In this document: positions 10,533 through 47,468 of the stretch, one piece after another | Position numbering within the stretch: the stretch's first letter is position 1 | Layout: every line of letters starts with the position of its first letter | Assembly: GCA_040222015.1 (NCBI GenBank) | Contig: JAVJWO010000159.1 | Coordinates: forward strand, 1-64,000 | Length of the DNA: 64,000 bases | Source: Coleofasciculus chthonoplastes F2-STO-03 | GTDB taxonomy: Bacteria; Cyanobacteriota; Cyanobacteriia; Cyanobacteriales; Coleofasciculaceae | Direction: 5' to 3' | Position numbers and translations under genes: made by a program | The notes under the pieces: model-generated | Database searches by the model: none | Seen by the model: only the letters and a program-made list of their open reading frames with translations | Told to the model about the DNA's origin: nothing

Positions 10533-11354
10533 TTACAGATCCCCCAAACTCCTCGGTTCGTTAAAGATAACATAACCCATGTTTAATTCTTGGCTGGGCA
10601 GTTCCAAGTTAACCCCTTTCCCTTGCAAGAGTTTGCGCCAGTCTTTATCCGTAACCTGGGGTGAGTTAGCCAAACGAAGATTAGCTACATGAGTTAACGC
10701 ATCAAACCAAATTCGATTGGCGACATAAACCTGATCTTCGCGGGGTTTAGCAGTATTGAGTTGACGTTCTAGAGTGGGAGTTAAAGGAATTCGCTGTATC
10801 CATCCTTGGGCAAAAACTGGACTAGCAGATTTGTCGCGATCGCAATACAGTGTAAAGTACCAGCGATACCAGTTACCAATTTTGAGCGGTGCTTGAGTAT
10901 CCGGAATGCTAAGACGAACCAAGCCCGGCGTTTGCGATAACTGAAACGGAAGTCGATAGACATCATTACCCGCTTCATCCTGCAATACAAATTCTCCCAC
11001 AGGAGCTTGTTCAGGAGAATAAGGAACATAAAACCACAATGTCGGGTGTGCTTCAAGAGTCTTTCCCCAGTTCGATTCAGGAACTAAGGCGGTTAGGGGA
11101 AAATCCATCGGGGGACACTTGCTACGACTTCCGCCTCCGCTGCGATTTCCACTTCTACCATCAGATTGAAAGTCCACATTATCGTCATTCTGATTATTCT
11201 CCTGGGCAAACACACCAGCCATGAGTAGTGCCGGAATGCGAGGAGACTCGGAGGTTAAACTGGAGGGAATATAGTTCCAACTTATACCCCAGACAACTGG
11301 GATTAAAAGGTTGGGTAGGTTAAGCCTGAGATATCGGTTCAGTAATCGAATCAT
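10533..11354 (-). CDS. DUF928 family protein
   Basis: Gly/Arg-rich GRSGNRSGGGSR..C, LTALVP, T...HPTLWFYVPY, YRWYF, WFDAL motifs. Confidence 0.85.
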   Translation of the reverse strand: MIRLLNRYLRLNLPNLLIPVVWGISWNYIPSSLTSESPRIPALLMAGVFAQENNQNDDNVDFQSDGRSGNRSGGGSRSKCPPMDFPLTALVPESNWGKTLEAHPTLWFYVPYSPEQAPVGEFVLQDEAGNDVYRLPFQLSQTPGLVRLSIPDTQAPLKIGNWYRWYFTLYCDRDKSASPVFAQGWIQRIPLTPTLERQLNTAKPREDQVYVANRIWFDALTHVANLRLANSPQVTDKDWRKLLQGKGVNLELPSQELNMGYVIFNEPRSLGDL

Positions 11355-11459
11355 GAATGGTAAGATTATAGATCGAGATCCACACTAATTAAAGTTTGGA
11401 TAAAAAAACAAGCTGGCGTAATTTACACGCCAAGACATAAAAATACAAAAGTGCAAATG

Positions 11460-11521
11460 TAGGGGCGGGTTTAGGGACAAAATGAATGGAGCCATCTCCT
11501 CCTCAACAACAAAACCCGCCC
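11460..11521. repeat. REP-like inverted repeat GTAGGGGCGGGTTT...AAACCCGCCC (related copies near 38347-38407, 40697-40758, 56207-56265; half copy near 57397)
   Basis: Recurrent terminal inverted repeats with variable cores in intergenic DNA. Confidence 0.8.
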
Positions 11522-11541
11522 ATTTCCCCACCACCAGATAA

Positions 11542-13917
11542 TCAATTAATCCAAAACCCAACCATGAAGAAAGCGACTATCGACGGCACCAACGGTAACC
11601 AAAGTCCGGTTCGCCACAGGAAAACAAAGCCGCATCCCCCTAGTGCTGCTAACGCTGTACCCCCAGCTACGATCAGATAGAGTCGCCGCTGATGCCATCC
11701 TCCCATGCATACACCTGGGATTCCAGACCAAGCCCAAACCCAAAGCACATCACCCCACTGTGGAAACCACCATACCACAGGTCGCTGATTTAATACCGCA
11801 CTGATGATGTGACTCACCATCTGCGCCTGGATTTCCACCCCGGAGAGTTCTCGAATTGGCTCAAACGCGGCACTGTAGGGAGTGAGATGATAGTCTCCAT
11901 AGCTGTTATCGATTGTACCAATTAGTACAATGCGATCGCGGATTAAGGTTGCCAATTCCCCATCTTTTGACCCGTTTAAAATCTGCTGTAGAGGTACTTT
12001 TGGGGCAATTCTCTGTGTTGCACGGTAATTCAGCAACACTTCAAAGCCACCGGAATCGAGATTATGATAGCCTCCCCTGTGGCGTTCCGATTTGGGGAAG
12101 ATACGGGTGCCGATTTGAAACCGGGTGCGGGAAAGCCGTTTAAATTCTATATCCTGTGACCCTAAATAGTGACGGGCAATCTGAAAACTAAAGGATTGCT
12201 GAGTCTGACAGTGGGTTCCCGCCGCCATGCCAAAAATTTGGCGTCGGATGACTAAATCTGGATCATTGGGTAAATCACTAAACCCTACCTGCTGCACCCG
12301 AACACCTGATGGTGGGGAAATTTCCGGGGATGTTCTTACACCGCCCCCGATTTGGCAAATGTCGATAAATCGCTGATCTCGCTGACGAATTGCTTGTTTG
12401 GCGGCGTCAGGATCTAATCTGAACGCCACCGGATCACGATAGATGTCTAAACCAATGACGGCGGGTTGGTGGGGTTTAATTTTGTCCAAGAGGTTGACTA
12501 ACGCCCGATCCGCCAGTGATCCTTGGCGTTTCATTCCCTGTTGATCTTGATATTGAATATCGGCGGCGTCTATGGTAATAATCAGTAGGCGCTCATCGGG
12601 TAGTTCTGTCGGGCGCATTCGCATTAGAGCATCAAACACCCACAGTTCTGAAGATTGCAGGAACCCCAGCCACCGCACTCCCATCACCAACCCTGTCGCG
12701 ATCGCACTGCTTAAGAGTAGAGTTTGCCAACGGGGGCGTCTTGCTCCCATGATAGAAGGTTTAGGGGCAGGTTTTGGCTGTTGCCGCCAATTCTGCCAAG
12801 TGGGTGCGATCGGTGTCGGCGTTTGCACAATGATCGGTAACCAGCTTGCACCGGGAAACTCCCCCTCTAATCCTTGCAATCGTTCCCGCGCTTTCCGTAC
12901 CGCTAAATCGAAGCATCGCCCCCCAGCAAATTCGATCAGAAAGTACTTGAGGAAGGCTTGAGCCACATTATCCGGCACCGGTTCGCGCATGACAATAATG
13001 TGGGGAATCTGTAGATCCGACAGTTGTCGCGCTAATCCCAAGCCATCACAGGAATTAAAAATTGCCAACTGTAACCCTCCCGCGATCGCTTCGTTGAGGG
13101 CGTGTTTTAATTGAGGAATGCTTAAACGCTCATGGGGGTTAATATAAATCTCCCCGGAATCGCCATCCCCTTGGCTAGAACTATGTCCGGCAAAAAAGAG
13201 AATTGTCCATCCCTGATTATGCCAAAGCTGCTCATTTAACTCCTGTCGGCGGGGTTCGACTAAAAAGACGGTTTCGGCACCATCCAGACTGGCAAGGTAT
13301 TGCCGATCCACGTCAATATCAAGTCCCGTTGCATCGCCGAGAATTGCCAAGATTCTTACGGTTTTAGTTGGCGGTTGAGTCGTTTTTCTCGGTTCAATGT
13401 TGAGAGAACTCAACGACACTTCGGCGTGGGGATAATCCCGAAAAAATCGCCAGGTATACCAGGGTAATTTTCTCAGGTTACTGTCTTCGGTTTGAATAAT
13501 AACGCGAATGTCTTGATTCGGGGTAAATTGCTGATAAAGTTGACGACAGATCGGACTAAAGTCTGGGGAATCGAGCCAGATATCAATCTGCTGTTGTAAT
13601 TCCTGACAAACCTCAACAAAATCAGCTTCGCCAACGTGAGTTACATCAGTATCATCAATTTGGATATCTTCATCGATATCAATGGGTTGAGGATGAGAGC
13701 GATGGATAATGAACGAACGAGCCTGATAGAGTAAATCGTAGAGTAATTGCCAGTGGCGGTAAAGTTCCACCAGATGAGGTGCGGCGGGTAAACTGCCGAT
13801 TACCTGCCGATTTTGGGGTTGATCTTGTACCTGTAACTGAGCCGTTACCCAGGCAAAGCCATTGTACAAGTCTCCTCGTCCTAGGTTCAAGATCACGAAA
13901 TTATTCATCAGTAGCAA
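11542..13917 (-). CDS. Membrane-bound CHAT protease + CHASE2 sensor domain protein
   Basis: N-terminal CHAT with LFFAGHS (His) and IFNSCDG (Cys); TM segment; CHASE2 motifs (LLIITID, VIGLDIYRD, RIVLIG, GVEIQAQMVS); C-terminal TM helices. Confidence 0.9.
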   Translation of the reverse strand: MLLMNNFVILNLGRGDLYNGFAWVTAQLQVQDQPQNRQVIGSLPAAPHLVELYRHWQLLYDLLYQARSFIIHRSHPQPIDIDEDIQIDDTDVTHVGEADFVEVCQELQQQIDIWLDSPDFSPICRQLYQQFTPNQDIRVIIQTEDSNLRKLPWYTWRFFRDYPHAEVSLSSLNIEPRKTTQPPTKTVRILAILGDATGLDIDVDRQYLASLDGAETVFLVEPRRQELNEQLWHNQGWTILFFAGHSSSQGDGDSGEIYINPHERLSIPQLKHALNEAIAGGLQLAIFNSCDGLGLARQLSDLQIPHIIVMREPVPDNVAQAFLKYFLIEFAGGRCFDLAVRKARERLQGLEGEFPGASWLPIIVQTPTPIAPTWQNWRQQPKPAPKPSIMGARRPRWQTLLLSSAIATGLVMGVRWLGFLQSSELWVFDALMRMRPTELPDERLLIITIDAADIQYQDQQGMKRQGSLADRALVNLLDKIKPHQPAVIGLDIYRDPVAFRLDPDAAKQAIRQRDQRFIDICQIGGGVRTSPEISPPSGVRVQQVGFSDLPNDPDLVIRRQIFGMAAGTHCQTQQSFSFQIARHYLGSQDIEFKRLSRTRFQIGTRIFPKSERHRGGYHNLDSGGFEVLLNYRATQRIAPKVPLQQILNGSKDGELATLIRDRIVLIGTIDNSYGDYHLTPYSAAFEPIRELSGVEIQAQMVSHIISAVLNQRPVVWWFPQWGDVLWVWAWSGIPGVCMGGWHQRRLYLIVAGGTALAALGGCGFVFLWRTGLWLPLVPSIVAFFMVGFWIN

Positions 13918-14001: not shown

Positions 14002-15270
14002 TCAATTACTGTCCACTGTTCGACGGATCGCAAAATCTTCGGTAATGCTAAATTCACCCAGCGCCACCCGGATGCTGAACTGTTTCCCTACGGGACAGGT
14101 GAATCGTTTGAGTTGAATTAAATTATCGTGTATTCGGGCTTGATATTCCTGAAGTATAGCACCCGATTGAGAGAGTAAGGCAACGCGAATATTAGGTGGC
14201 AAGATAGGGGTTTCTCCCACCGGATACAGTTGTACCCGAACACCGACTCGTTCGTCTGTCTCTCGGACTAAACCCACCAGCAACGCCACGGATTGATTGT
14301 TGAGTTCTATACCCAAATCGATTACCTTAATCCCTTCTACATAAACCTGTCTCTCTTGGTTTCGTTGAGATCGTCTATGTCTAAAACTAACGGCAACTTG
14401 AACTGAATCTCGGCTTAAAAAGGCGTCCAGGGATTGCCAACCCGACTCAAAGATATTTTGCCACCATTGTCCTAAGTTAATCCGGGGTGGATCAGGTTCT
14501 GCCACTCTTTGAACTTGTCTTAACCGTCTTTGGTATAAGTCTTGACGCCATTGTTCGTTTGTGACAAATGCAGCCCATTGCTCATAAGGAACCGCAAGAC
14601 GCGGTGCGGAAACGGAGGATTGACTCAGTTGTGCCAATAACCGTTCAGCGGTTTCCTGGGTTAAAGATGGTACTGATTTAACTTGTACATCTTTCGGGAA
14701 AACGGGTTCAGGTTGGAGTAACATCAGAGTCAGATCTGGGGCTAAATGTTGTCCTGAAATGTAGTAGGCGCGATCGCTTTCTTCGTATATCCCTCTTTGC
14801 TGCAAATTTTGATAGCTAATATATCCCCACAGCCGCATCCAGGATGTATCTGGATTATCCAGGTTTATCTGTACAGCCAGATAATAATCGGCTCTCCAAC
14901 TGGTAATATCTACCCACTCTTGAGGAACACAAACCTCATCTACATCGGTGCTATCTGTAGGAATAAGCGCCAGTCGAATGTCGCCGAAGTTAATTATAGT
15001 ACCATTAATGAATTCCCAGAGACTGGGTAAGGATGATTCTATAAAACTATTAATTCGAGTCGATTTGTCGTTCTCTTGTCCTTCTTGACACCATCCCTCC
15101 AGCCAAGGAATAAATGCCGTTAAACAGAGTTCATTCAGGTAGGCATTACAACGAGTCATCGCATTAGCATGATTTTGCGATCGCTGCCAAGCTTGTTGTT
15201 GTTGTTTCTCTGAAATTTTTAACCAAATCTGATTGGGATACGTCCGGGATAATTCCAGTAATTTAAACAT
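14002..15270 (-). CDS. DUF1822 family protein (ATG 15270 with GGAGAG RBS preferred; ORF extends to 15297)
   Basis: AYLNELCL, LWEFINGT, VPQEWVDI..WRADYYLAVQ, LGQWWQNIFESGWQ, IQLKRF...FSIRVAL. Confidence 0.85.
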   Translation of the reverse strand: MFKLLELSRTYPNQIWLKISEKQQQQAWQRSQNHANAMTRCNAYLNELCLTAFIPWLEGWCQEGQENDKSTRINSFIESSLPSLWEFINGTIINFGDIRLALIPTDSTDVDEVCVPQEWVDITSWRADYYLAVQINLDNPDTSWMRLWGYISYQNLQQRGIYEESDRAYYISGQHLAPDLTLMLLQPEPVFPKDVQVKSVPSLTQETAERLLAQLSQSSVSAPRLAVPYEQWAAFVTNEQWRQDLYQRRLRQVQRVAEPDPPRINLGQWWQNIFESGWQSLDAFLSRDSVQVAVSFRHRRSQRNQERQVYVEGIKVIDLGIELNNQSVALLVGLVRETDERVGVRVQLYPVGETPILPPNIRVALLSQSGAILQEYQARIHDNLIQLKRFTCPVGKQFSIRVALGEFSITEDFAIRRTVDSN

Positions 15271-15274
15271 TATA

Positions 15275-17107
15275 CTACTCTCCACTATGAAGTTCATTTA
15301 AATCTAAACAATACAACTGGTTTAGCCAAGTTTCAACAGCTTGACTAATCTGGTCTTTTTCCGGATCTAGAGAAATTCCATACGTTCCATAACTCCACTG
15401 GAGTAAAGCCTGCTGTAATTGCTGCTTGGCTTGGTTAATGGCTTGAATTACGTTTTCTTTATGCAGAAATCGAGCAATTTTTTCTTCAGGCATTCTATGA
15501 GCATACCGCATTTTCATAATTTTTCGGGATTTAATTTCCGAGAAAGCCGTCACGAGTTGGTCAGATATAACTTGCTTATAGTGGTTTTTGATTAATTGCT
15601 CAATATAACTTATCTTGAGTTGATTGAGTGTTTCAATAGCAGCTATTTCTAAATCATGCCGAATGAGGTTTAATTTTTTCTCAATTGTATCGCTGGACTC
15701 ATTCTCTAAATAATCAACAATAGTATCAATGCTATATTTTTGACCATAGCGCAGTTTAAGGAGCAATTGTAAATGAGACCCTAAAGATTCAATAGTAACC
15801 ATTAAAGCTCTATCGATTTCCTGATTTTGATAAGGATTAGTAAATCTCTTAGACAAAAACTCTTTTACATAGTTTTGACTCCAAACATCCAAATCATTAT
15901 CTAACTGAGTCCGAATCAGACTATCCATTTGAGTTAACAGGGGAGATTTGTAAGTGTTGGCGATATAACGAGCCACTGTTCCCTGATTGACTCCCACTTT
16001 CTTGGCAAACTGAGCTTGAACTAAGAGGGAAAGTTCGTGAGGATAGCACAAAGGCATAACTGCCTGACGGAATTGTCTAGGAATTTTACTCCGAATTTTG
16101 TCAAGATTTTGATCAATGCGCTGAAATTGTGCCTGTAAATTGGGAGTGATTTGATTGATAAATTCAGCAGAGTCTTGGTCAGAATTTAACGTTTCCCAAG
16201 GATTAACCGACTGATCATAGTGTTTTTCATAGCTATCGGCATCCCTAGACAGTTCCACCAGTTTTTGAGAGTTGCGTAACGCTTGAATACAGGTATTCAT
16301 CCACTGTTGAATTGTCTTTGCTGTTACGTTTGAGCCAGACGAAACTTGTAGGGGAGCATCAGCAAGGAATCGATTCAGATTATAGTCTCTAGCCGCTTCC
16401 TCAAAATCCGTCTGTTCGGGTTGAACCCACGCCCTACCTTTTCTTTGACTTGGATGATAAAGCCGATTATTTTTATAGATAGGAACGAAGTATTGCCAAG
16501 CAAAGCAGTATTGAGACACCATTGGTTCAGTTATCCCTTGTCGGAATAAAGCCTCTCTCAATTTTTGCGCGGCATTCTTGAATTTGCGGCGACTGGTGAG
16601 ATCCACATTGCATAAGAGATGCCAGTCGGATTCCCAATTGATTTGCTCTAGAATAATATTCTTGAGTGCGCCTTCACAATAGGTTTTTAAATTAGCGGCA
16701 TTGCTCGTATTTGCATTATGTCCATGAATAATTTTTTTTAAATGATCGCGATTATAGAGAACGTCAGTCGTCAGGTCAAAAAAATGGAGACACGTCGCTA
16801 AAGGAAAGGGAAATTTTCGAGCAAACTGGCGGATAAAATGACAGCGAGAGACATCCAAATAAGCAACCAGATGGAGATGAGCAAATTGTTGTTCCGATTC
16901 AGGGAGTGATTCCTGATTGATGATACTCCAGAAATAGTCAACATAATCATCAGTGTGCCACTCTGGATGTAACTGAACCAGTTTTTCCATGTGGCGTTTT
17001 AGACGCGGCTGAAGCGATGGCTTGAACCAAGGAGAACCATTATGGCTGGTTATCTCATATAAAATACAGAATTGCTCAATGATATCCTGACGCTGTAAGT
17101 TCGACAT
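15275..17107 (-). CDS. Large sigma-70-like transcription factor with several region-4-like HTH modules
   Basis: AHLHLVAYLD...ANLKTYC..ALKNII region-2-like segment; QAQFAKKVGVNQGTVARYI HTH; two more LKLRYG/MKMRYA region-4-like repeats; abuts DUF1822. Confidence 0.65.
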   Translation of the reverse strand: MSNLQRQDIIEQFCILYEITSHNGSPWFKPSLQPRLKRHMEKLVQLHPEWHTDDYVDYFWSIINQESLPESEQQFAHLHLVAYLDVSRCHFIRQFARKFPFPLATCLHFFDLTTDVLYNRDHLKKIIHGHNANTSNAANLKTYCEGALKNIILEQINWESDWHLLCNVDLTSRRKFKNAAQKLREALFRQGITEPMVSQYCFAWQYFVPIYKNNRLYHPSQRKGRAWVQPEQTDFEEAARDYNLNRFLADAPLQVSSGSNVTAKTIQQWMNTCIQALRNSQKLVELSRDADSYEKHYDQSVNPWETLNSDQDSAEFINQITPNLQAQFQRIDQNLDKIRSKIPRQFRQAVMPLCYPHELSLLVQAQFAKKVGVNQGTVARYIANTYKSPLLTQMDSLIRTQLDNDLDVWSQNYVKEFLSKRFTNPYQNQEIDRALMVTIESLGSHLQLLLKLRYGQKYSIDTIVDYLENESSDTIEKKLNLIRHDLEIAAIETLNQLKISYIEQLIKNHYKQVISDQLVTAFSEIKSRKIMKMRYAHRMPEEKIARFLHKENVIQAINQAKQQLQQALLQWSYGTYGISLDPEKDQISQAVETWLNQLYCLDLNELHSGE

Positions 17108-17285: not shown

Positions 17286-17316
17286 CCTATTGGGGTACAG
17301 ATAATGTTTTTATGCA
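17286..17316 (-). promoter_or_regulatory. Putative alternative-sigma promoter TGCATA-N17-CCAATAGG pointing at the sigma-like gene
   Basis: Minus-strand read TGCATA AAAACATTATCTGTACC CCAATAGG, ~180 bp upstream of ATG 17107. Confidence 0.65.
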
Positions 17317-17446
17317 CTATGAGTCTTCGCTATAAGCACAGGGCGACCTGAGCAAATTGAGTGGACTGGTATCGCCCCTGCACTGAGACTACAGGTGTTT
17401 TGGCTCATCCATGACGGGTGCGATCGCAGAAATTTTTCCAGTTAAC

Positions 17447-17477
17447 TGCATAAATCACAAAACCTCATCCTAATAAG
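17447..17477 (+). promoter_or_regulatory. Putative alternative-sigma promoter TGCATA-N17-CTAATAAG
   Basis: Exact consensus copy. Confidence 0.7.
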
Positions 17478-17578
17478 TCAGTTAAAGCGTTTGAGGGGTT
17501 AGAGGAATGGCACGTTTATGGGATAGAGCTTCTTGTTGCTTGTATTGCTACAGCTTTTCCCAGATAGCTCACCCAAAG

Positions 17579-17609
17579 TGCATAAATCAAAAAACTCAAC
17601 CGTAATAAG
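17579..17609 (+). promoter_or_regulatory. Putative alternative-sigma promoter TGCATA-N17-GTAATAAG
   Basis: One mismatch; 132 bp after the previous copy. Confidence 0.7.
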
Positions 17610-17635
17610 TCCGTTAAAGGGTTGGCAAGCTTAAA

Positions 17636-17665
17636 TGCATAAACAAAAAACCCAACCCTAATCAG
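17636..17665 (+). promoter_or_regulatory. Putative alternative-sigma promoter TGCATA-N16-CTAATCAG
   Basis: Third tandem copy, ending ~55 bp before GTG 17720 (RBS AAGGAG between). Confidence 0.6.
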
Positions 17666-17719: not shown

Positions 17720-17872
17720 GTGGCTATTGTATTCGGAACTCCCGCTGACGACACCTTAAATGGAAGTGCAGGTGATGACTTTTTATTGGGTAATGCCGGA
17801 AACGACATCCTTAATAGTAATGCTGGTGCTGACCATTTATTTGGTGATATTACTGTTGGATTAACAGGATGA
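17720..17872 (+). CDS. 50-aa RTX/hemolysin-type Ca-binding repeat peptide (probably a truncated RTX gene)
   Basis: Not in ORF track. Strong RBS AAGGAG; MAIVFGTPADDTLNGSAGDDFLLGNAGNDILNSNAGADHLFGDITVGLTG*; its TGA overlaps the ATG of the next gene (ATGA). Confidence 0.75.
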   Translation: MAIVFGTPADDTLNGSAGDDFLLGNAGNDILNSNAGADHLFGDITVGLTG

Positions 17873-18198
17873 AAATAGAATTAGAGTTTGAAAATGTTCC
17901 TGATAACATTGAAAACGCAATAGCTGAAATTCGGGTTGAAGATCAGAGTGAGGCTGATGCACCAGCTATACGATTATCCTCAAAACGTGTTGGTCCTTTC
18001 TTAATCCAACATTCCCAGCCAAAAGTTACTTTGGATGTGGATCTGACCATCCCAGATGGAAATCACGAATTATCCATACTTGTACGAGTCAAGGGTCACA
18101 CGCAGAGCAATCAGCCAATTGAGTTTCTTAACACCACTACCACCTCCCTACCAACAGGAAGTGAGTTGGTGCAAGTAACACTGTCACGCATCCTTTAA
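17869..18198 (+). CDS. YbaY-like small protein without signal peptide
   Basis: AIAEIRVEDQSEADAPAIRLS resembles the YbaY-family V.LEDVS.ADAPA motif. Confidence 0.55.
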   Translation: MKIELEFENVPDNIENAIAEIRVEDQSEADAPAIRLSSKRVGPFLIQHSQPKVTLDVDLTIPDGNHELSILVRVKGHTQSNQPIEFLNTTTTSLPTGSELVQVTLSRIL

Positions 18199-38547: not shown

Positions 38548-40695
38548 ATGAAATTCCAGCTTATTCAACAGCATAGCGAAGAAGACTGCGGTGCGGCTTG
38601 TCTGGCTTCTATTGCTAAATATTATGGTCGTACCTTCACCCTCAACCGAATGCGGCAAGCTGTGGGAACTCGACAGGATGGAACCACTTTATTAGGGTTG
38701 AAACGGGGCGCTGAAGTTCTCGGTTTTAATGCCCGGGGGATTAAAGCGCCTCTCGATGTTGTGAATAAAAAAGCCGTACCTCTGCCAGCAATTATTCACT
38801 GGAAAGGCTATCACTGGGTAGTTTTGTATGGCAAACGGAATAATAAATACGTTGTTGCTGATCCCAGTGTCGGTATCCGTTATCTTTCCAAAAAGTGGCT
38901 CATGGAAGCCTGGACGGGTGGGGTTATGCTGCTGCTTGAACCTGATCCAGTCCGCTTTTTTGCCCAACCCGATGAACAAGAGAAAATTGGCGGATTGGGT
39001 CGCTTTCTTCGGCGTATTTTACCCTACCGCGCCCTGCTTGCCCAAACTTTGTTGCTTAATGTTGTACTCGGTTTACTCTCCCTAGCTTCTCCATTCCTGC
39101 TACAACTCCTCACCGATGATGTCCTTGTGCGAGGGGATACCCAACTCCTAACCAGTGTCGCGATCGCAGTCATTGTTATGCACCTGGTTAGCAGTAGTTT
39201 ACGACTTGCCCAATCTAACCTAATTGCCCACTTTGCCCAGCGTCTGGAATTAGGACTCATCTTGGACTTCGCACGGCAAATTCTGCGCCTGCCCCTAGAT
39301 TACTATGAATCCCGTCGCAGTGGCGAAATTGCTAGTCGATTGCGGGATATTCAGGAAATTAATCAGTTGGTTGCTCAGGTGGTTGTTTCCCTACCGAGTC
39401 AGTTTTTTATTGCTCTGATTTCGGTGATTTGCATGGTATTCTATAGCGCTAAACTTACCGCTGTTGCTGGTGTAATTGCTCTGTTTATGACCCTCTCAAC
39501 GGTCATATTTATGCCCACGTTACACCAAAAAACTCGTTCTGTCTTAGTCACTGAAGCCGAAAATCAAGGGGTTTTAGTCGAAACCTTTAAAGGCGCTCTC
39601 ACTCTAAAAACCACAACAGCCGCACCTCAATTCTGGGAAGAATTCCAAGGTCGCTTTGGTCGTCTGGCGACTCTCACTCTGGGGACAAATCAAATTGGCA
39701 TTATCAATGGAATCTTCTCTAATTTAGTCTCTAGTATCGGTAGCATTACCCTACTCTGGTTCGGTAGCACGTTGGTGATTCAACAAGAGTTAACGATTGG
39801 GATGCTCTTGGCGTTTAACAGCATGAATGGTAATTTTACAAACTTAATTGATACCCTAATTCGCTTTGTCGATGAATTCACCCGCGCCAAAACTGCCACC
39901 CAGCGTTTTACTGAAGTAATTGATACGCCACCGGAAACCAAAGACGATAGTCAAAAACCCTGGGTTCGGATTCCTAGTAATGCTGACATTATCTGCACTA
40001 ATCTTAACTTTCACCACGCGGGTAGAGTGTCTTTGCTGCAAGACTTTTCCCTAAGGTTTCCTGGGGGTAAAGTGATTGCCCTAATTGGCAAATCTGGCTG
40101 TGGTAAAAGTACCCTGGCTAAACTCATTGCTAGTCTATATCCGCTCCAGTCGGGTAATATTCGCTTTGGTATTTATAATCAACAGGATTTGTGCCTCAAT
40201 GGTTTGCGACAACAGGTTGTGCTAGTTCCCCAAGACGCCCACTTTTGGCGTCGCTCAATTGTGGAAAACTTCCGCCTCGGTGATCCTCACGTTTCTTTTG
40301 AGCAGATTGTACAAGCTTGTCAGATTACGGGGGCTGACGAGTTTATCAGTCAATTGCCAGATAAATATCAAACCGTATTAGGAGAATTTGGGGCAAATAT
40401 TTCCGGTGGACAACGACAGCGATTAGCGATTGCTAGAGCAATTGTTAATCATCCACCCGTGCTGATTTTAGATGAGTCTACAGGCGCTCTTGATCCGGTT
40501 AGCGAAACTGAGGTTTTGACCCGATTACTAGCTCATCGTCAAGGTCAAACAACGATTTTGATTAGTCATCGTCCTCGAGTGATTCAACGGGCAGATTGGA
40601 TCGTTATGTTGGAGTCTGGAACATTGAAATTACAAGGTTATGTTGATAATTTACAAAAACAAACAGGTGAGCATTTAGATTTTTTAATTCCTTAA
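38548..40695 (+). CDS. lanT: Peptidase C39-containing ABC transporter (LanT-type; ORF extends to 38530)
   Basis: QHSEEDCGAACLA, HWVV, ADP catalytic residues; GKSGCGKST, ISGGQRQR, LILDE. Confidence 0.92.
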   Translation: MKFQLIQQHSEEDCGAACLASIAKYYGRTFTLNRMRQAVGTRQDGTTLLGLKRGAEVLGFNARGIKAPLDVVNKKAVPLPAIIHWKGYHWVVLYGKRNNKYVVADPSVGIRYLSKKWLMEAWTGGVMLLLEPDPVRFFAQPDEQEKIGGLGRFLRRILPYRALLAQTLLLNVVLGLLSLASPFLLQLLTDDVLVRGDTQLLTSVAIAVIVMHLVSSSLRLAQSNLIAHFAQRLELGLILDFARQILRLPLDYYESRRSGEIASRLRDIQEINQLVAQVVVSLPSQFFIALISVICMVFYSAKLTAVAGVIALFMTLSTVIFMPTLHQKTRSVLVTEAENQGVLVETFKGALTLKTTTAAPQFWEEFQGRFGRLATLTLGTNQIGIINGIFSNLVSSIGSITLLWFGSTLVIQQELTIGMLLAFNSMNGNFTNLIDTLIRFVDEFTRAKTATQRFTEVIDTPPETKDDSQKPWVRIPSNADIICTNLNFHHAGRVSLLQDFSLRFPGGKVIALIGKSGCGKSTLAKLIASLYPLQSGNIRFGIYNQQDLCLNGLRQQVVLVPQDAHFWRRSIVENFRLGDPHVSFEQIVQACQITGADEFISQLPDKYQTVLGEFGANISGGQRQRLAIARAIVNHPPVLILDESTGALDPVSETEVLTRLLAHRQGQTTILISHRPRVIQRADWIVMLESGTLKLQGYVDNLQKQTGEHLDFLIP

Positions 40696-40815
40696 TTGGG
40701 GCGGGTTTAGTTACATCTAGGTGCAACCGAAAAGATATTCGTGAAACCCGCCCCTACAGAGGCACTACATACTGTAAAAAGTCAGATTTATCCGCTCATT
40801 CTACTCATTATTACC

Positions 40816-42324
40816 ATGGTCAGTACTCCTATCCCAGATTTTTTACCGCTTCTTCAAAACAATGAATTTCTGCCACCAATAAGTCGTTGGACAAGGTGGG
40901 GCGGACTATTCATGGTTGGTGCGGTGGGTGTCGCGATCGCGCTTTGTTCGGTAACGAAATATAGAGTAACCGTAAAAGCTCAAGCTCAGGTACGTCCGGC
41001 TGGAGAGTTGCGGTTAGTTCAGACGGCTACACAGGGTTCGGTTATTAGTATCTCCGCTAGGGAAAATCAAGAGATAAAAAAGGGAGATATTATAGCTACT
41101 CTTGATGATTCTAACCTACAAACTGAAAAACAGAAAGTGCAAATTAATATTCAGCAAGCACAACGCCAAATGGTTCAAGTTAGCGCCCAAATTAGCGCCC
41201 TAAATCGTCAGATTCAGGCAGAAACGAATCGAATTAACCGCGCTGTTGCTTCAGCTAATGCCCAACTGAGTCACCGTCAACGGGATTATCGAGATTTAGA
41301 CATTACCAGTCATGCCCAATTCCAAGAAGCTGAGGCAAATGTGAGCAGCGCACAGAACGAATTACAAAAAGCGCAAATTCAATTAACATCAACTCAAGCC
41401 AACTTAAAATCTAGTCAAGCGGCGTTAAATGCTGCCCGTTCTAAACTCAACCGTTATCAACCGATCGCCCAATTGGGTGCCCTTTCTCAGAATCAATTGG
41501 AAGAAGCCCAACTGTCGGTTGAGCAGCACAAACAAACCGTTGAGGCACAAAAAGCCACTGTTGAGGCACAACACCAAACCATTGAGCAGTTAAAACAAGC
41601 AGTTAAAGCGGCTCAAGCCAAACAGCAAAGCGCCAAAGCCAGTCTCAATCCCAGTGATGCAGACGTTGCGATCGCAGCTTTGGCTATCGCTCAAGAACAA
41701 GCGACGGGTGAAGCGAGTCTCGCCATATTAGCGAAAGAAAAAGAAGCCTTGATTCAACAGCGCATTGAAATCCAGAAACAGCTAGAACGAAATAACCAGG
41801 AACTCCAACAAATTGACCTTGATTTAGAGCAAACCACGATTAGAGCCACGGCTGATGGGATTATTTCCCAGTTTAATCTACGCAACCCAGGTCAAACGGT
41901 GCAACCTGGACAAAACATTGCCCAAATTGTTCCCAGTGATGTGCCTTTAGAAATAAAAGCTGCTGTATCTCCGGCTGATATTGGTAAATTAGACGTCGGT
42001 CAAACTGTGCAAATGCGCGTCTCGGCTTGTCCCTATCCCGATTACGGTACACTCAACGGTGTAGTCAGGCAAATATCTGAGGATACGATTCAATCGAACC
42101 CAAATCAGACATCTGCGATCGCGACTGTCGCCACTAGCCAGAAGACGGCAACAATTGCAGCATTCTACCAGGTAACCATTGAGCCAGAACGCCTGTTTCT
42201 CAGTCAAGGCAACAATAAATGCGTCCTTCAATTCGGGATGGAAGGCAAAGCTGATATTCTTGCACAAGAAGAGACAGTGCTTACCTTTTTGCTCAGGAAA
42301 GCAAGGCTAGTCGCCAATTTTTGA
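40816..42324 (+). CDS. HlyD-family secretion membrane-fusion protein (ATG 40816 preferred; 40741 lies in a repeat)
   Basis: EFLPPISRW, one TM segment, long coiled coil, IRATADG, SACPYPDYGTL. Confidence 0.9.
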   Translation: MVSTPIPDFLPLLQNNEFLPPISRWTRWGGLFMVGAVGVAIALCSVTKYRVTVKAQAQVRPAGELRLVQTATQGSVISISARENQEIKKGDIIATLDDSNLQTEKQKVQINIQQAQRQMVQVSAQISALNRQIQAETNRINRAVASANAQLSHRQRDYRDLDITSHAQFQEAEANVSSAQNELQKAQIQLTSTQANLKSSQAALNAARSKLNRYQPIAQLGALSQNQLEEAQLSVEQHKQTVEAQKATVEAQHQTIEQLKQAVKAAQAKQQSAKASLNPSDADVAIAALAIAQEQATGEASLAILAKEKEALIQQRIEIQKQLERNNQELQQIDLDLEQTTIRATADGIISQFNLRNPGQTVQPGQNIAQIVPSDVPLEIKAAVSPADIGKLDVGQTVQMRVSACPYPDYGTLNGVVRQISEDTIQSNPNQTSAIATVATSQKTATIAAFYQVTIEPERLFLSQGNNKCVLQFGMEGKADILAQEETVLTFLLRKARLVANF

Positions 42325-42447: not shown

Positions 42448-42478
42448 TGCATAATTTTCAAAACCCACCCCTAATAAG
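42448..42478 (+). promoter_or_regulatory. Putative alternative-sigma promoter TGCATA-N17-CTAATAAG
   Basis: Exact consensus, ~40 bp before ATG 42518. Confidence 0.7.
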
Positions 42479-42605: not shown

Positions 42606-44183
42606 TCAAAACTGGCAAATATATGGAGGACTGACTGGGCAAGTTGGTTGTGATCCTCCGGAGCTATCCGAAGAAATCGGATTCTCTGTAAGGTCAAGTC
42701 TGCTCAGATTTTGTAGTCCGGAAAGAGGGCTGACATCTGTGATTTGGTTACCTTTGAGACGAAGCAAGTTCAGATTTTGTAGTCCGGAAAGAGGACTGAC
42801 ATCTGTGATTTGGTTACCTTTGAGACTAAGCGAGTTCAGATTTTGTAGTCCGGAAAGAGAACTAATATCTTCCATTTCGTTGCCGTTGAGACTAAGCGAT
42901 TTCAGTTTTTTTAATTCTGCCAGAGGGCTGACATCTTGGATTTGGTTGAAGTTGAGCGCAAGCGTCTCCAGGTTGGTGAGTCCAGAAAGAGGACTGACAT
43001 CTGTGATTTGATTATATGTGAGCCTAAGAAACCTCAGGTTGGTGAGTCCAGGAAGAGGGCTAATAGTTTTGATTTGGTTACCGTTGAGACTAAGCACGTT
43101 CAGATTTTGTAATTCTGCCAGAGGGCTGACATCTTGGATTTGGTTACCGTTGAGATCAAGCGTCTCCAGGTTGGTGAGTTCTGCCAGAGGGCTGATATCT
43201 TGGATTTGGTTGAAGTTGAGCGCAAGCCTCTTCAGGTTGGTGAGTCCAGAAAGAGGACTGACATCTGTGATTTGATTATATGTGAGCTTAAGAAACGTCA
43301 GGTTTGTGAGTTCTGCCAGAGGGCTAATATCTTGGATTTGGTTGTCTTCGAGGTCAAGCCATGTCAGATTTTGTAATTCTGCCAGAGGGCTGACATCTTG
43401 GATTTGGTTACCGTTGAGCTCAAGCGCCTTCAGGTTGGTGAGTCCAGAAAGAGGGCTAATATCTTTGATTTGGTTGAGAACTAGGAAAAGTCGTTTCAGA
43501 TTGGTGAATTCAGAAAGAGGGCTAATATCTGTGATTTGGTTGTCTTCGAGGTAAAGCGCGTTCAGGTTTTGTAATCCTGCCAGAGAGCTAATATCTGTGA
43601 TTTGGTTGCCGTAGAGGTGAAGCCATTTCAGATTTTGTAGTTCGGCTAAAGGACTGATAGTTGTAATTTGGTTGTTTTCGAGGTCAAGGAACTCCAGGTT
43701 GGTAAGTTCTGCTAGAGAGTTAACATCAGCAATTTGGTTGCGGCTGAGGGAAAGCTCAGTCAGGTTGGTGAGTTCTGTTAAAGGACAAATATCTGTGATT
43801 TGGTTGCGTCTGAGGGTAAGATACTTCAGATTGGTGAGTTCTGTTAAAGGGCAGATATCTGTGATTTGGTTGCCGTCGAGGTGAAGCGACTCCAGGTTGG
43901 TAAGTTCTGATAAGGGACTCAGATCACTGATTTCTTGGCTGGAGAGGGAAAGCTCAGTGCGACTTGACAGATTTTCGGCAGCAAGTTCACAATCATTGGT
44001 GCCTACTTCTGCTAACAGCAGCTGTACTGTTCGTCCCGCCTCAACTGATAAATCGGCTTGGTTTTGACACAACTCTTTAAAAGAACTCCCATGACTAGGT
44101 TCAGCCGCTTGAGTGACTCCCCATCCCCAACTACTGAATGCCCACATATTGATTAGCAGAGCAACGGCGCTAGTTAATTTCAT
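42606..44183 (-). CDS. Internalin-like leucine-rich repeat protein (start probably ATG 44183; ORF extends to 44315)
   Basis: About 20 22-aa repeats L..L.L..NQI.DISPL..LTN; signal-like MKLTSAVALL; Cys-containing caps. Confidence 0.9.
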   Translation of the reverse strand: MKLTSAVALLINMWAFSSWGWGVTQAAEPSHGSSFKELCQNQADLSVEAGRTVQLLLAEVGTNDCELAAENLSSRTELSLSSQEISDLSPLSELTNLESLHLDGNQITDICPLTELTNLKYLTLRRNQITDICPLTELTNLTELSLSRNQIADVNSLAELTNLEFLDLENNQITTISPLAELQNLKWLHLYGNQITDISSLAGLQNLNALYLEDNQITDISPLSEFTNLKRLFLVLNQIKDISPLSGLTNLKALELNGNQIQDVSPLAELQNLTWLDLEDNQIQDISPLAELTNLTFLKLTYNQITDVSPLSGLTNLKRLALNFNQIQDISPLAELTNLETLDLNGNQIQDVSPLAELQNLNVLSLNGNQIKTISPLPGLTNLRFLRLTYNQITDVSPLSGLTNLETLALNFNQIQDVSPLAELKKLKSLSLNGNEMEDISSLSGLQNLNSLSLKGNQITDVSPLSGLQNLNLLRLKGNQITDVSPLSGLQNLSRLDLTENPISSDSSGGSQPTCPVSPPYICQF

Positions 44184-44241
44184 CGTTAGTAAACGTCCCC
44201 TAAGTCTTGTTGGTTCTTCCGACATCTTGGGATAAATTATA

Positions 44242-44371
44242 TATAGCAATCCTAAATAGGTTGCGGTACAATCAAAAAACAGAAAAAAGCCTTGAAACTC
44301 TTTCCCATTCCCCATTCTTCATTCCCGAAAATTATCAAATTTTTGGACACGAATTAAATAAGATTGCTATA
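44242..44371. repeat. MITE-like element with TATAGCAATC...GATTGCTATA ends
   Basis: 10-bp perfect terminal inverted repeat. Confidence 0.7.
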
Positions 44372-44612
44372 GTGAAATCGGGCGCACGTCTGTGCGCCCC
44401 TACGGTTTTTGGATGTAAGCCTAATCTATCAAATTAGGTGTGCCACGCTACTACTACTATTACCGAACGCTTAACACTTATACAAGGAATCTAATTATTG
44501 AAGCTCCGGTTATAAATACCTATAACAAAAAGGATACCGCATATCTCCCCTAGCGATGAGAGATAGATAAATGAACCGCAATCTGTATTGTCCCTTGATG
44601 GAGGACTGAACC

Positions 44613-47468
44613 ATGGGTCTAAAATTAGTCAGCCTCAGCTTTGCTACTCTGCTGCTGGCGCTAACATCTGCCGTCTTACCACCGACATTGAGTCTATCGC
44701 CTGCAGTCGCACAGACTCTTTCCGAGCAAGACCACGATCAGAAAGCTAAAGCTGATCGGTTGCTTAGAGAAGGTAGATATCGGAATGCCCGGAATAACGT
44801 TGAAAGAGCATTAAGCAATTTCGAGGACGCCTTATTAATTTATGAAGAAATAGGCGACAATGCGGGTATGGGAGAAACCTTATACCACATTGGGATGATT
44901 TACGAAGAGAGAGAAGACTATGATCAGGCGTTGAATTACTACCAGCGATTGTTGCGAATGAGTAGCGAACTCGACAATAGCGATAGGGAAAGAACTGCCC
45001 TGAGTATGATAGCAAATCTGTATAGTACCTATGGTCATCAGCTCGTCGAGCAAAATCAGTATCGAGAAGCCGTAGATAAATTCCAGCAAGCCTTAGTTAT
45101 TTACAGAAAAATTCGTTCTAAAAGATCGCAATGGCACACGCTTAAGAGCATGGGCTTTGTTTACAGAATCTTAGGAGAGTACCAATTAGCGTTGGCAGCC
45201 TATCAGCGAGCCTTATCGATTGAGCCGGACATGGCTTTATTTGCCGGGGATGGAGTCAATTTCGAGGTCGGGCAGATTTATGAGTTACTCGGACAATATG
45301 ACCTAGCATTGGAGTCCTATCAACAAGCCCTAGAACGCGCCAGAATCCCTGCAATACCAGTTATCGGGAGGGGCGCGATTGGGAACATTGGGGGTGAAGT
45401 ACAAGCGCTCATTGCGATTGGCAATGTTCATTTCAAACTTAAACAGTACGAATTAGCCTTAGATTTTTACCAGCAAGCTTCAGCCGTACTCAAAACAGTT
45501 GCAAATAAAGAATACAAAAAATTGCTGGAAGCCTCGACACTCAATAGTATTGGGGTTGTTTATCTAACACAGGGAAAAGAAGAATTAGCATTGGAGTACT
45601 TGCAGCAAGCGTTAACCATCAGCCAAGCATTCGGTGACAAGCCATCAGAAGGATCATTTCTCCGCAATATAGGCAGGGTTCACTTTGAACTAGAGCAGTA
45701 CGACTTCGCCTGGAATTTCTACCAGCAAGCCTTACTAATTAACCAGGAAACGGGTGACAAAGGAGATGAAGGACATACGCTCAATAATATTGGTTACTTG
45801 CTAGAGGCACAGAATCAGCCAGAATTAGCGATTATCTTCTTCAAGCAGTCGGTCAACGTGAGAGAAGCGATTCGGGATAATATCAAGGGACTTTCCCAAG
45901 ACCAACAAGAATCCTACACTGAAACCATTGCTGAGGATTATCGCCATTTAGCTGACTTATTATTACAACAAAACCGTATCCTCGAAGCCCAACGAGTCCT
46001 CGATTTACTCAAAGTCCAAGAACTTGACGATTACTTGAACAACGTGCGCGGTACAGGAAATACAGCCAAAGGCGTACCCAATTTACCCCCAGAACAACAA
46101 GTTACAGACAACTACCAAGCCATTCTTGATCAAGCCATTACTCTGGGGAAAGAACTTACCCAATTGCGACAGAAAAGTAATCGTACTCCCGAAGAGGAAC
46201 AGCGCATCGCTCAACTCGTGAATGCCCAAGAAACAATTCTCGCCGATTTCAACACTTTTATCGAAAGTGACGAAGTAGAAGCCCTGATTGCTCAACTCAC
46301 TCCCAAGACACGCAAACCGGATTTAGTAGACGATTTAGAAGACTTGATCTGCTTACAAGATAACCTCAAGAATTTGCACCAAAATGCCGTCCTTTTCTAT
46401 CCCCTAATTCTAGATGACCGCATTGAACTTATCCTGACTACCCCTGACTCTCCCCCTATTCGCCGTACCGTTGCCGTTACTAAAGAACAACTTAATCAGG
46501 AAATTTTAACGTTACATCAAGCCTTACGAAACCCTACCTATAATGCTAAAGCTCCAGCCCAAAAACTCTACAACTGGTTGATTAAACCCTTAGAAAATGA
46601 CCTTACCGCAGCAGATGCCGAAACCCTGATCTACGCCCCCGATGGACAACTTCGCTACATTCCGCTTGCGGCTTTGCACGATGGTGAACAATGGTTAGTC
46701 GAACGCTACCGCATCAATAATATTACGGCGGCTTCTCTGACTGAACTCAACACAAAACCCCAATCCCAACTCAAGATTTTGGCGGGGGCATTTACCCAAG
46801 GACACTACAGCTTTACCATGGGTCAAGAACAGTTTGAATTTGGCGGTTTGCCCTATGCTGGAGTGGAAGTGGAAACGTTAGCCGAAACGGTTCCTAATAC
46901 CACTCAACTCTTTGATAACGCCTTCAATCTTGAAGACACGAAACCGAAAATGGGTGATCATACTGTCTTACATTTTGCCACTCACGGGGCAATTGTAGTC
47001 GGCACCCCGGAAGAATCGTTTATTCTCTTTGGTGATGGAACTCCCGTTACCATTACTGATGTCCGCAACTGGAACCTAAATAACGTGGATTTAGTGGTTC
47101 TTTCTGCCTGCGAAACTGGACTTGGTGGCAATCTGGGTACAGGTGCAGAAATTCTCGGTCTCGGCTATCAAATGCAAAGGGCTGGTGCTAGGGCGGCTAT
47201 TGCTTCATTATGGACTGTGGATGATGGCGGCACTCAAGCGTTGATGAATGCCTTTTATGCGGCATGGCAAGGTGAGGCTATCACGAAAGCTGAAGCCCTG
47301 CGACAAGCCCAAATTGCTCTGATTACGGGTGATTATACGGCTTTGGGAGAACAACGAGGTGCTAGGGTAGCCGTGCGGGTGCGGAATGGGCTAAAACCTG
47401 AAGTGGTGAATCGTCTTAGTCATCCTTATTATTGGGCACCGTTTATTTTAATTGGCAATGGGTTGTGA
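44613..47468 (+). CDS. Exported TPR-repeat CHAT protease, paralog of 28865..34273
   Basis: Signal peptide SLSFATLLL...AVAQ, TPRs, LHFATHG/VLSACETG; near-identical C-terminus. Confidence 0.92.
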   Translation: MGLKLVSLSFATLLLALTSAVLPPTLSLSPAVAQTLSEQDHDQKAKADRLLREGRYRNARNNVERALSNFEDALLIYEEIGDNAGMGETLYHIGMIYEEREDYDQALNYYQRLLRMSSELDNSDRERTALSMIANLYSTYGHQLVEQNQYREAVDKFQQALVIYRKIRSKRSQWHTLKSMGFVYRILGEYQLALAAYQRALSIEPDMALFAGDGVNFEVGQIYELLGQYDLALESYQQALERARIPAIPVIGRGAIGNIGGEVQALIAIGNVHFKLKQYELALDFYQQASAVLKTVANKEYKKLLEASTLNSIGVVYLTQGKEELALEYLQQALTISQAFGDKPSEGSFLRNIGRVHFELEQYDFAWNFYQQALLINQETGDKGDEGHTLNNIGYLLEAQNQPELAIIFFKQSVNVREAIRDNIKGLSQDQQESYTETIAEDYRHLADLLLQQNRILEAQRVLDLLKVQELDDYLNNVRGTGNTAKGVPNLPPEQQVTDNYQAILDQAITLGKELTQLRQKSNRTPEEEQRIAQLVNAQETILADFNTFIESDEVEALIAQLTPKTRKPDLVDDLEDLICLQDNLKNLHQNAVLFYPLILDDRIELILTTPDSPPIRRTVAVTKEQLNQEILTLHQALRNPTYNAKAPAQKLYNWLIKPLENDLTAADAETLIYAPDGQLRYIPLAALHDGEQWLVERYRINNITAASLTELNTKPQSQLKILAGAFTQGHYSFTMGQEQFEFGGLPYAGVEVETLAETVPNTTQLFDNAFNLEDTKPKMGDHTVLHFATHGAIVVGTPEESFILFGDGTPVTITDVRNWNLNNVDLVVLSACETGLGGNLGTGAEILGLGYQMQRAGARAAIASLWTVDDGGTQALMNAFYAAWQGEAITKAEALRQAQIALITGDYTALGEQRGARVAVRVRNGLKPEVVNRLSHPYYWAPFILIGNGL

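Follow-up and report, generated by a model that had tools for sequence, protein, structure and literature searches.

A candidate CHAT protease/DUF1822/sigma-like factor operon with a conserved promoter-like motif beside a cyanobacterial lanthipeptide cluster

We analyzed a 64,000-nucleotide (nt) stretch of the Coleofasciculus chthonoplastes F2-STO-03 genome (contig JAVJWO010000159.1, positions 1 to 64,000; hereafter the window) that contains a minus-strand operon of four genes. The first encodes a 610-aa sigma-like factor with no Pfam match (15275-17107); it is followed by genes for a 431-aa DUF1822 protein (14002-15297; Pfam 5.9e-88), a 791-aa CHAT-CHASE2 receptor-protease (11542-13917; Pfam CHAT 8.6e-12, CHASE2 1e-58) and, last, a 273-aa DUF928 protein (10533-11354; Pfam 2.7e-54). 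The listing of open reading frames (ORFs), in which the first two genes overlap by 23 nt, and the Pfam matches bear out the gene order proposed in an initial annotation of this DNA. A short bipartite motif that resembles a promoter faces the operon, stands ahead of neighbouring genes that include a lanthipeptide precursor, and recurs at related operons of other cyanobacteria. All evidence presented here is computational. As part of an explanation that we consider, taken whole, somewhat more probable than its alternatives combined, we assign the operon to the caspase (CHAT)/sigma/DUF1822 signalling systems, as a subfamily with an unusually long sigma-type factor.

A bipartite motif ahead of the operon and of neighbouring genes

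The motif consists of TGCATAAA, a spacer of 15 nt and CYAATAAG, and is present in nine copies in the window. A search for TGCATAAA-N14-20-TAATMAG returned six matches in the window, all on the plus strand, and none in 100 shuffles. These six lie within a direct repeat of 210-290 nt that occurs three times. Repeat copy 1 (17372-17665, plus strand) holds three motifs (17447-17477, 17579-17609 and 17636-17665) and precedes RTX-like, 109-aa and astacin genes; copy 2 (20442-20655, plus strand) holds a full motif (20517-20547) and a truncated one starting at 20633; and copy 3 (34278-34518, plus strand) holds two (34353-34383 and 34485-34515) before the lanthipeptide precursor. The repeat at 20442-20655 is 96-98% identical to 17372-17660, and that at 34278-34518 is 80-84% identical. 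As Rfam returned no match at E 1 or better over 10000-48000, the repeats correspond to no known RNA family.

Two variants complete the set that we describe. One, on the minus strand (17286-17316), ends in CCAATAGG and lies ~180 nt ahead of the start codon of the sigma operon; it is one letter off the first loose pattern and was aligned by eye with the sigma-side copies of three related loci (L060, L063, L069). The other (TGCATAAT..., 42448-42478, plus strand; position weight matrix score 27.6) lies behind the HlyD gene, toward the 3′ end of a leucine-rich repeat (LRR) gene, and resembles two motif copies in L063. The annotation had placed a single motif upstream of the sigma, RTX/astacin, membrane-protein and lanthipeptide genes, and this holds, except that its 'RTX' gene is an ORF of 50 aa only. 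The TAAA-type first box, 15-nt spacer and long second box may recall the promoter class of FliA-type sigmas, a likeness that agrees with the presence of FliA and WhiG among the matches.

To compare genomes, we collected 34 loci with relatives of the 610-aa protein from public genomes of Coleofasciculus, Microcoleus, Nostocales and Pleurocapsales; culturable strains with the locus include Calothrix, Nostoc, Scytonema and Tolypothrix. The first, tight motif pattern gave only one chance-like match in these loci. The regions upstream of LanA genes revealed a slightly different second box, and with the pattern loosened on that basis we found 52 matches in the window and the 34 loci, against 4 in reversed-sequence controls. 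A weight matrix yielded 55 matches and none in the control; as the matrix was built from the pattern matches it is not independent, and only the absence of control matches is informative. Of the 33 loci with at least 300 nt of upstream sequence, 21 have a sigma-facing copy no more than 1.3 kb from the sigma gene by a scripted count, and 26 do when five sigma-facing variants recognized by eye (L061, L066, L069, L071, L075) are included. Behind the motif copies we find the sigma gene (8 loci), LanA (the window and 5 loci) and peptides with double-glycine leaders (6 loci), together with ~183-aa and 125-aa proteins with hydrophobic N-termini, a radical-SAM protein and an astacin-like protein (in L068, a gene of 647 aa lies behind a motif copy). 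In L048 (~8650-8080, minus strand), the gene behind one motif copy resembles, on inspection by eye, an IS630-type transposase with a helix-turn-helix (HTH); an insertion may have cut the repeat there.

The motif is also restricted genome-wide. The whole 7.7-Mb genome of the host holds only two further matches, with unrelated inner sequence, and no match is found at its three paralogous sigma-DUF1822 modules. In five other whole genomes, the signature matches are concentrated on or close to the sigma locus, with the remainder at control level. Beyond control level, the motif is confined to the sigma locus in the six genomes searched. We regard a link between the factor, the motif and a regulon of the marked genes as quite probable.

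Using phmmer to compare the window proteins with the ORFs of the 34 loci, we found DUF1822 next after the sigma gene in 26 of 30 loci with at least 1.5 kb downstream (the exceptions are L060, where the sigma gene is broken, L074, L078 and L079), and DUF1822, CHAT-CHASE2 and DUF928 in this order in 22 of 27 loci with at least 5 kb downstream. Upstream, where at least 8 kb were available, an HlyD gene and a C39-ABC exporter gene accompany the operon in 14/19 loci (13 divergent upstream, 1 downstream), and LanM and LanA do so in 5/19, all five of which also have the exporter pair. CHAT-bearing neighbours occur in ~10 of the 34 loci. The check on co-occurrence that the annotation had suggested is thus favourable: the sigma operon, the motif and clusters for lanthipeptides or double-glycine peptides recur as a set in different orders of cyanobacteria.

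The module itself varies in composition. In one locus of an uncultured cyanobacterium (L077, 11750-20767), a 2492-aa TPS-CHAT-like protein (5e-87) directly follows DUF1822 in place of CHAT-CHASE2 and DUF928. The three further modules of the host genome, each with a gene in the sigma position and DUF1822, are on contigs C41, C113 and C4 (L013-L015): one has CHAT-CHASE2 and DUF928, another a CHAT-TPR protein with a giant TPS-CHAT protein, and in the third only a TPR protein follows a Pfam-less 484-aa protein.

The sigma-like factor and its predicted DUF1822 partner

The 610-aa protein resembles sigma factors in its modelled fold and, weakly, in its sequence profile, which agrees with the initial annotation. 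In NCBIfam, TIGR02937 matches residues 270-386 (2.7e-8, 33.6 bits). We found 85 homologues of ~600 aa, with every displayed organism name cyanobacterial; many carry a precomputed PF04545 (Sigma70_r4) match, and their source labels read mostly 'XRE family'. A profile of 34 homologues matched FliA region 4 in the Protein Data Bank (PDB) at E 0.0089 and HipB-type HTHs at E 0.02; phmmer of the single protein against the PDB gave nothing meaningful. The AlphaFold2 (AF2) model has a mean predicted local distance difference test (pLDDT) value of 83.3, and sigma domains dominate the list returned by a VIA structure search with this model. Residues 426-495 align with sigma-E region 4 (2h27_D; Z 8.5, root-mean-square deviation (rmsd) 2.2, 69/69 aligned). 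Residues ~50-160 align with several sigma-2 structures (Z 5.6-6.6, rmsd 2.8-4.0, 87-97 aligned), among them SigW sigma-2 (5wuq_A; Z 6.6, rmsd 2.8, 87 aligned) and SigA domain 2 (Z 6.6, rmsd 3.1, 97 aligned), with no sequence profile match in this region. From the model, a sigma-4 fold is indicated at both the fold and the family level, and a sigma-2 fold is likely. An insert of 260 residues separates the two and contains a near-invariant HTH at 355-391; a further HTH lies at the C-terminus (~512-601), and the model also has a low-confidence loop (283-313) and an N-terminal beta-hairpin extension. The protein may work with the RNA polymerase core, which the bipartite motif, with its fixed spacing and a copy facing the factor's own gene, supports indirectly.

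In the AF2 model of the DUF1822 protein (pLDDT 68.5), an alpha/beta domain at the N-terminus is joined to a beta-sandwich at the C-terminus by a low-confidence linker (265-313). In the VIA search the C-terminal domain resembles Ig-like sandwiches (Z ~7), one row being the extracellular sensor sandwich of the anti-sigma RsgI4 (7cg5_A, Z 6.5). The N-terminal domain (~23-198) is like PD-(D/E)xK nucleases (D212, Z 7.3; I-Ssp6803I, Z 7.1; DpnI, Z 6.8; Hjc, Z 6.7). The orthologues of Nostocales and Pleurocapsales (L049-L062 and others) have an insert of ~70 residues between the domains that forms a HEAT-like alpha-repeat, and those of Coleofasciculus and Microcoleus, including the window's, do not. 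This insert probably explains why DUF1822 is named a repeat protein in the literature; a PDB profile search for DUF1822 returned only artificial alpha-repeat proteins, through the HEAT-like insert that the window's protein lacks.

The structure prediction proposed with the initial annotation supports binding between these two proteins. We modelled factor residues 1-500 with the whole DUF1822 protein, using alignments of 21 orthologues for each, and obtained an ipSAE of 0.82 (runs 0.81, 0.82, 0.82), whereas the best of three controls scored 0.00. Among solved complexes, 116 of 157 attained this mark, as did 2 of 215 mismatched pairs; these counts apply only approximately, since we supplied the alignments ourselves. 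The runs have at least 83% of their contacts in common, and partner pLDDT is at least 76. As no solved relative of these DUF1822 domains exists, the score does not reflect recall of a known complex. In the predicted interface, residues 206-226 of the factor and its HTH at 355-391 meet DUF1822 residues 8-73, so that an invariant FAW...YKNN stretch and the invariant HTH are joined to invariant N-terminal helices of DUF1822. Judging from these models, the factor probably binds DUF1822, and the predicted interface fits occlusion of a DNA-reading surface.

The third protein has the layout of a receptor-protease: an N-terminal region, CHAT at 220-348, CHASE2 at 408-733 (both by Pfam) and two C-terminal hydrophobic segments (746-768 and 770-791 in a Kyte-Doolittle scan). 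The catalytic dyad of CHAT is present, with His within FFAGHSS and Cys within IFNSC. Because CHAT precedes CHASE2 and its membrane segments, it is presumably cytoplasmic; the segment ahead of CHASE2 (~397-420) was not flagged as hydrophobic in the same scan, and the topology there is assumed. Residues 1-200, ahead of CHAT, had no match in Pfam or NCBIfam, and these libraries returned no EACC2 model. Against the NCBIfam HetF model NF045509 the protein scored 21.5 bits, where the equivalog cut-off is 1200. The Kyte-Doolittle scan found no hydrophobic segment in the DUF928 protein, whose export is likewise assumed.

Neighbouring genes on the plus strand

Directly behind the motif copies of the first repeat lie a 50-aa RTX-like ORF with glycine/aspartate nonapeptide repeats (17720-17872), a 109-aa ORF (17869-18198) and a gene for a protein with astacin and BTRD1-repeat matches in Pfam (18247-20229), all on the plus strand. 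The astacin protein has no N-terminal hydrophobic segment in the Kyte-Doolittle scan, a correction to the initial annotation. Behind the second repeat copy are a gene for a 132-aa protein with two hydrophobic regions (20774-21172, plus strand), a 37-aa ORF with the same type of RTX-like repeats (21279-21392) and a gene for a canonical 232-aa extracytoplasmic function (ECF) sigma (21389-22087, plus strand; TIGR02937 44.4 bits, above the cut-off), followed by a gene for a DUF7383 protein. The two RTX-like ORFs may be what is left of larger genes, or may encode small repeat peptides. A homologue of the 132-aa protein (4e-68) is encoded directly divergent from the sigma gene in L048 and is preceded by motif copies. 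NCBIfam gave no match for the DUF1822, DUF928, 109-aa, 132-aa and DUF7383 proteins.

The third repeat copy precedes a gene for a 90-aa LanA precursor with a mersacidin/lichenicidin-type leader and a GG site (34571-34843; TIGR03898 8.1e-20). It is followed by LanM (34995-38306; DUF4135 9.7e-130, LANC_like 2e-74), a C39-peptidase ABC exporter with Peptidase_C39, ABC_membrane and ABC_tran in one protein (38530-40695) and an HlyD-family protein (40741-42324; HlyD_3), all on the plus strand. As judged from domain matches, the LanM, the GG-leader LanA and the C39 ABC exporter are those of a class II lanthipeptide cluster, and other genomes have homologues of the LanM, exporter and HlyD genes next to the sigma operon. 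A gene convergent with that for HlyD encodes a 569-aa LRR protein (42606-44315, minus strand) with at least 16 copies of a 66-nt unit and one N-terminal hydrophobic segment.

Three large CHAT proteins are encoded in the same region, all on the plus strand and assigned by Pfam: a 1691-aa TPS-FG-GAP-CHAT protein (23352-28427) and TPR-CHAT proteins of 1807 aa (28850-34273) and 951 aa (44613-47468). An alignment of the four CHAT domains shows that, as the initial annotation stated, the dyad is intact in each: His lies within FFAGHSS, HLASHAD and HFATHGA (twice) and Cys within IFNSCD, LSACRT and LSACET (twice). The same annotation called the three additional proteins exported; they are present, and the single N-terminal hydrophobic segment that the Kyte-Doolittle scan found in each fits export, though it is not a signal-peptide prediction. 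No TpsB-type partner for the TPS-CHAT protein was seen among the scanned window ORFs of at least 100-110 aa, and the rest of the window is unrelated. The further suggestion that these CHAT proteins and DUF928 feed CHASE2 was not supported: nothing ties them to the signal, with no motif ahead of the CHAT genes and no hydrophobic segment seen in DUF928.

Contigs from four metatranscriptome runs are 90-99% alike to the window over the sigma, astacin, ECF, TPS-CHAT and LanA genes. They are contigs only, possibly contain DNA, and give no starts, strands or levels; uncovered parts (~29000-32300 in three runs) prove nothing. In all four runs, contigs from a related strain join position 20300 to 22964 with 7 other letters between, which marks a strain difference by insertion or deletion. 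The segment concerned (20301-22963) carries repeat copy 2, the 132-aa gene, the 37-aa RTX-like ORF, the ECF sigma and DUF7383; other contigs, ~93% alike, still cover 21452-22124. At ~22209-22265 and 22991-23048 the summed contig depth is roughly 800-5400, against tens to hundreds elsewhere, and many loose ends and a short palindromic consensus give these places the look of a small dispersed intergenic repeat. Farther out, an 18-nt unit in five tandem copies, the last decayed, lies between two MscS-type channel genes (8844-8952), and an IS605 OrfB/TnpB-like gene (OrfB_IS605 3.6e-7; weak Cas12f-like TNB match) lies at 51378-52790.

Proposed relay, alternatives and known systems

We propose that the 610-aa factor reads a promoter of its own, of the form TGCATAAA, 15 nt, CYAATAAG, and so directs transcription. 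The copy facing its own operon would provide positive feedback, and the other copies would drive LanA with the LanM and exporter genes, the astacin unit and the small membrane-protein unit. In the resting state, the N-terminal domain of DUF1822 would bind the factor and keep it inactive. CHASE2 would sense a signal outside the cytoplasm, and the cytoplasmic CHAT domain would lift the block, most likely by cutting DUF1822; the freed factor would then fire its own operon and the marked genes. We infer this relay from family knowledge and from the precedents HetF-PatU3, DdvA-DdvS and Csx29-Csx30. As a whole we judge it the best explanation, at a little over even probability, and within it the use of core polymerase, inhibition by DUF1822 and cutting of DUF1822 by CHAT are all inferred steps. 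The role of DUF1822 as a cleaved inhibitor, which is drawn by analogy, we advance tentatively, as a possibility short of even.

Several results weigh against this proposal. The TIGR02937 score of the 610-aa protein (33.6 bits) is below the cut-off of 42.9, so that it falls outside curated membership; the protein contains no Pfam sigma family at E 0.01 or better, and Foldseek of the whole model against the PDB returned no entry at an E-value of 0.001 or lower. Helical proteins often attain VIA Z values of 6-8.5 by chance, and when hhalign was used to compare the family profile with the proteins in the sigma position of the host's three paralogous modules, no match came out, with probabilities below 1%. 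On the partner side, no cytoplasmic anti-sigma domain appears among 50 VIA rows for DUF1822, and in an alignment inspected by eye no Arg is common to all DUF1822 linkers, though HetF cuts after Arg. On the regulon side, none of the three additional CHAT genes has a motif copy ahead of it; the closest relatives, L046-L048, lack a recognizable sigma-facing copy (L046 and L047 have only 582 and 898 nt upstream); the exporter pair is missing in 5 of the 19 loci with full flanks; and one RNA contig begins upstream of the motif, so the contigs cannot show a start site.

What reads the motif, and whether anything does, can be explained in other ways. The 610-aa protein could be a multi-HTH activator or repressor, with the motif as its operator over a housekeeping-sigma promoter and the A/T-rich second box as the -10 of that promoter. 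Such a protein would fit the three HTH-type units (355-391, 426-495 and ~512-601), the XRE-like character of the best-conserved one (HipB E 0.02, homologues annotated 'XRE family') and the sigma score under the cut-off, and an additional conserved box (AAAGGGTT-like) past the bipartite part suggests more contacts than a plain promoter needs. It would leave aside that the sigma-2-like (50-160) and sigma-4-like (426-495) folds stand in the correct order, that the spacing of the boxes is nearly fixed at 15 nt across orders, and that short proteins with Sigma70_r2 or r4 matches occupy the same gene position in paralogous modules; self-facing copies are, moreover, typical of alternative sigmas, as is generally known of ECF sigmas. 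We consider this reading unlikely. That the ECF sigma at 21389-22087 reads the motif and regulates itself, the 610-aa protein being unrelated to the motif, is very improbable, even though it is a bona fide ECF-type sigma (44.4 bits for TIGR02937) with a motif copy upstream of its transcription unit. An ECF homologue occurs in none of the 34 related loci, most of which hold the motif, and in L048, where the 132-aa gene and its motif copies directly adjoin the 610-aa gene, the nearest 10 kb contain no ECF gene. With segment 20301-22963 also missing from related-strain contigs in 4/4 runs, the ECF sigma is probably an incidental neighbour, and it is the long factor to which the motif belongs; the 96-98% identity of repeat copies 2 and 1 further indicates a recent duplication. 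It is scarcely credible that the repeats are selfish or accidentally duplicated DNA with no regulatory role. Motif copies do lie inside three long direct repeats, two nearly identical, with other dispersed repeats nearby, but in genomes with sigma proteins of 35-45% identity conservation is limited to a core of 31-46 nt, which occurs there in single copies, before the same kinds of genes and in both orientations, and elsewhere in the six genomes searched the motif does not exceed control level.

A different assignment of the protease step would make DUF1822 an adaptor that brings the factor to the receptor-protease, with CHAT cutting the sigma-like factor or itself. Kaur et al. propose 'autopeptidase activation', and DUF1822 is found where TRADD-N adaptors sit in sister systems (PMC8195603); self-cleavage has been proposed for DdvA (PMC11506125). 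The factor itself offers a low-confidence loop (283-313) and an N-terminal beta-hairpin extension, and the VIA rows include pro-sigma-K from its processing complex (8vjl_B; Z 7.8, rmsd 5.2, 103 aligned). Two points favour the inhibitor instead, neither of them decisive: the predicted interface covers the best-conserved HTH of the factor, which fits occlusion, and DUF1822 has a long low-confidence linker of its own (265-313) between two folded domains. To the adaptor reading we give a low probability, and we retain DUF1822 as the candidate inhibitor.

A bolder form of the proposal, which we regard as doubtful, is that the locus by itself makes up an entire autoinduction circuit for ribosomal peptides and that this type of circuit is previously undescribed. 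An exported product, or a fragment freed outside the cell by exported TPS/TPR-CHAT proteases, would be sensed through DUF928 and CHASE2; the caspase-like domain of the receptor would cut DUF1822, and the freed sigma would amplify its operon and fire the peptide cluster. If true, a caspase-type proteolytic relay would do in cyanobacteria what two-component quorum switches do in lantibiotic producers, and it would offer a general means of activating their silent peptide clusters. An antagonistic role for the products, as the initial annotation supposed, is not a necessity: in Synechococcus, double-glycine peptides exported by C39 transporters drive biofilm formation (PMC12267927).

The core of the system has been catalogued. 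In a computational study, Kaur, Iyer, Burroughs and Aravind (eLife 2021) described EACC2-caspase systems with neighbouring ECF sigma and DUF1822 genes, in which a stimulus leads to peptidase activation and then to sigma-driven transcription (PMC8195603). As there, the operon combines DUF1822 and a sigma with a CHAT protein whose type of C-terminal sensor varies (that study mentions CHASE2); by sequence, CHAT and a C-terminal CHASE2 are present in one 791-aa protein, and DUF1822 adjoins the sigma-like gene here, in the 26 of 30 loci and in the three other modules of the host genome. The available text names no promoter, target genes, DUF928 or long sigma form, and calls DUF1822 a TPR protein, whereas the window's copy models as an alpha/beta domain with a beta-sandwich (PMC8195603). 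The initial annotation knew of no description of the circuit; the three-gene core and its logic are in that paper, and the promoter and the link to peptide clusters were not found in print. Our literature searches turned up no account of the motif and none that connects CHAT, CHASE2 or DUF1822 with peptide clusters of cyanobacteria, although the supplementary tables of Kaur et al. may list such loci, and nothing experimental on this system in the papers found for DUF1822 and DUF928. By word search, the available part of a genome-mining survey of cyanobacterial peptide clusters does not mention sigma, CHAT or promoter (PMC3140520), and none of the papers found treats the control of cyanobacterial lanthipeptide or double-glycine clusters. 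The three-gene core is therefore already known, and the conserved promoter-like motif, the target set and the predicted partner are new here.

The three precedents named in the initial annotation (HetF-PatU3, DdvA and Csx29/Csx30) are all in print, and each shares part of the proposed logic. HetF, a membrane CHAT protease of Anabaena, cuts PatU3 after Arg117 (PMC9457339), a case of a cyanobacterial CHAT protein cutting a small protein that sequesters a DNA-binding regulator, HetZ; it differs in its partners and its process, cell division and heterocysts, and the receptor described here is no HetF orthologue. DdvA of Myxococcus, an anti-sigma with a periplasmic TPR-CHAT, controls the ECF sigma DdvS (PMC11506125), and both there and, by the proposed relay, here an envelope-spanning protein couples a CHAT module to sigma control. 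In DdvA the periplasmic CHAT is fused to a zinc anti-sigma domain, whereas here CHAT is presumably cytoplasmic and the partner of the sigma is a separate soluble protein. In the type III-E CRISPR craspase, the TPR-CHAT protease Csx29 cleaves the sigma-linked protein Csx30 (PMC10028731); a CHAT protease would likewise act on a sigma-associated protein here, but craspase is RNA-triggered through Cas7-11 and fully cytoplasmic, and we detected no sequence relation between its proteins and DUF1822 or the 610-aa factor.

As far as the available accounts go, the closest worked sigma/anti-sigma pair inside a lanthipeptide cluster is MibX/MibW, the pathway-specific ECF sigma and anti-sigma of the microbisporicin lantibiotic cluster (PMC4973701). 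There, and by our proposal here, a cluster-situated sigma with a restraining partner drives feed-forward lanthipeptide production. MibX/MibW belongs to an actinomycete and a class I lantibiotic, with a small classical ECF sigma and a membrane anti-sigma, and its available description includes no caspase-like protease, DUF1822 or CHASE2 (PMC4973701). Until now, caspase/sigma/DUF1822 systems have been catalogued only by computer, and no targets are known for them. The locus described here supplies a candidate regulator with a recognizable fold, a short motif that marks likely targets and a predicted protein partner, which makes the regulation of peptide clusters directly testable in culturable strains. 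If the protease step holds, this membrane-receptor form would join the small set of caspase-like proteases that gate bacterial transcription.

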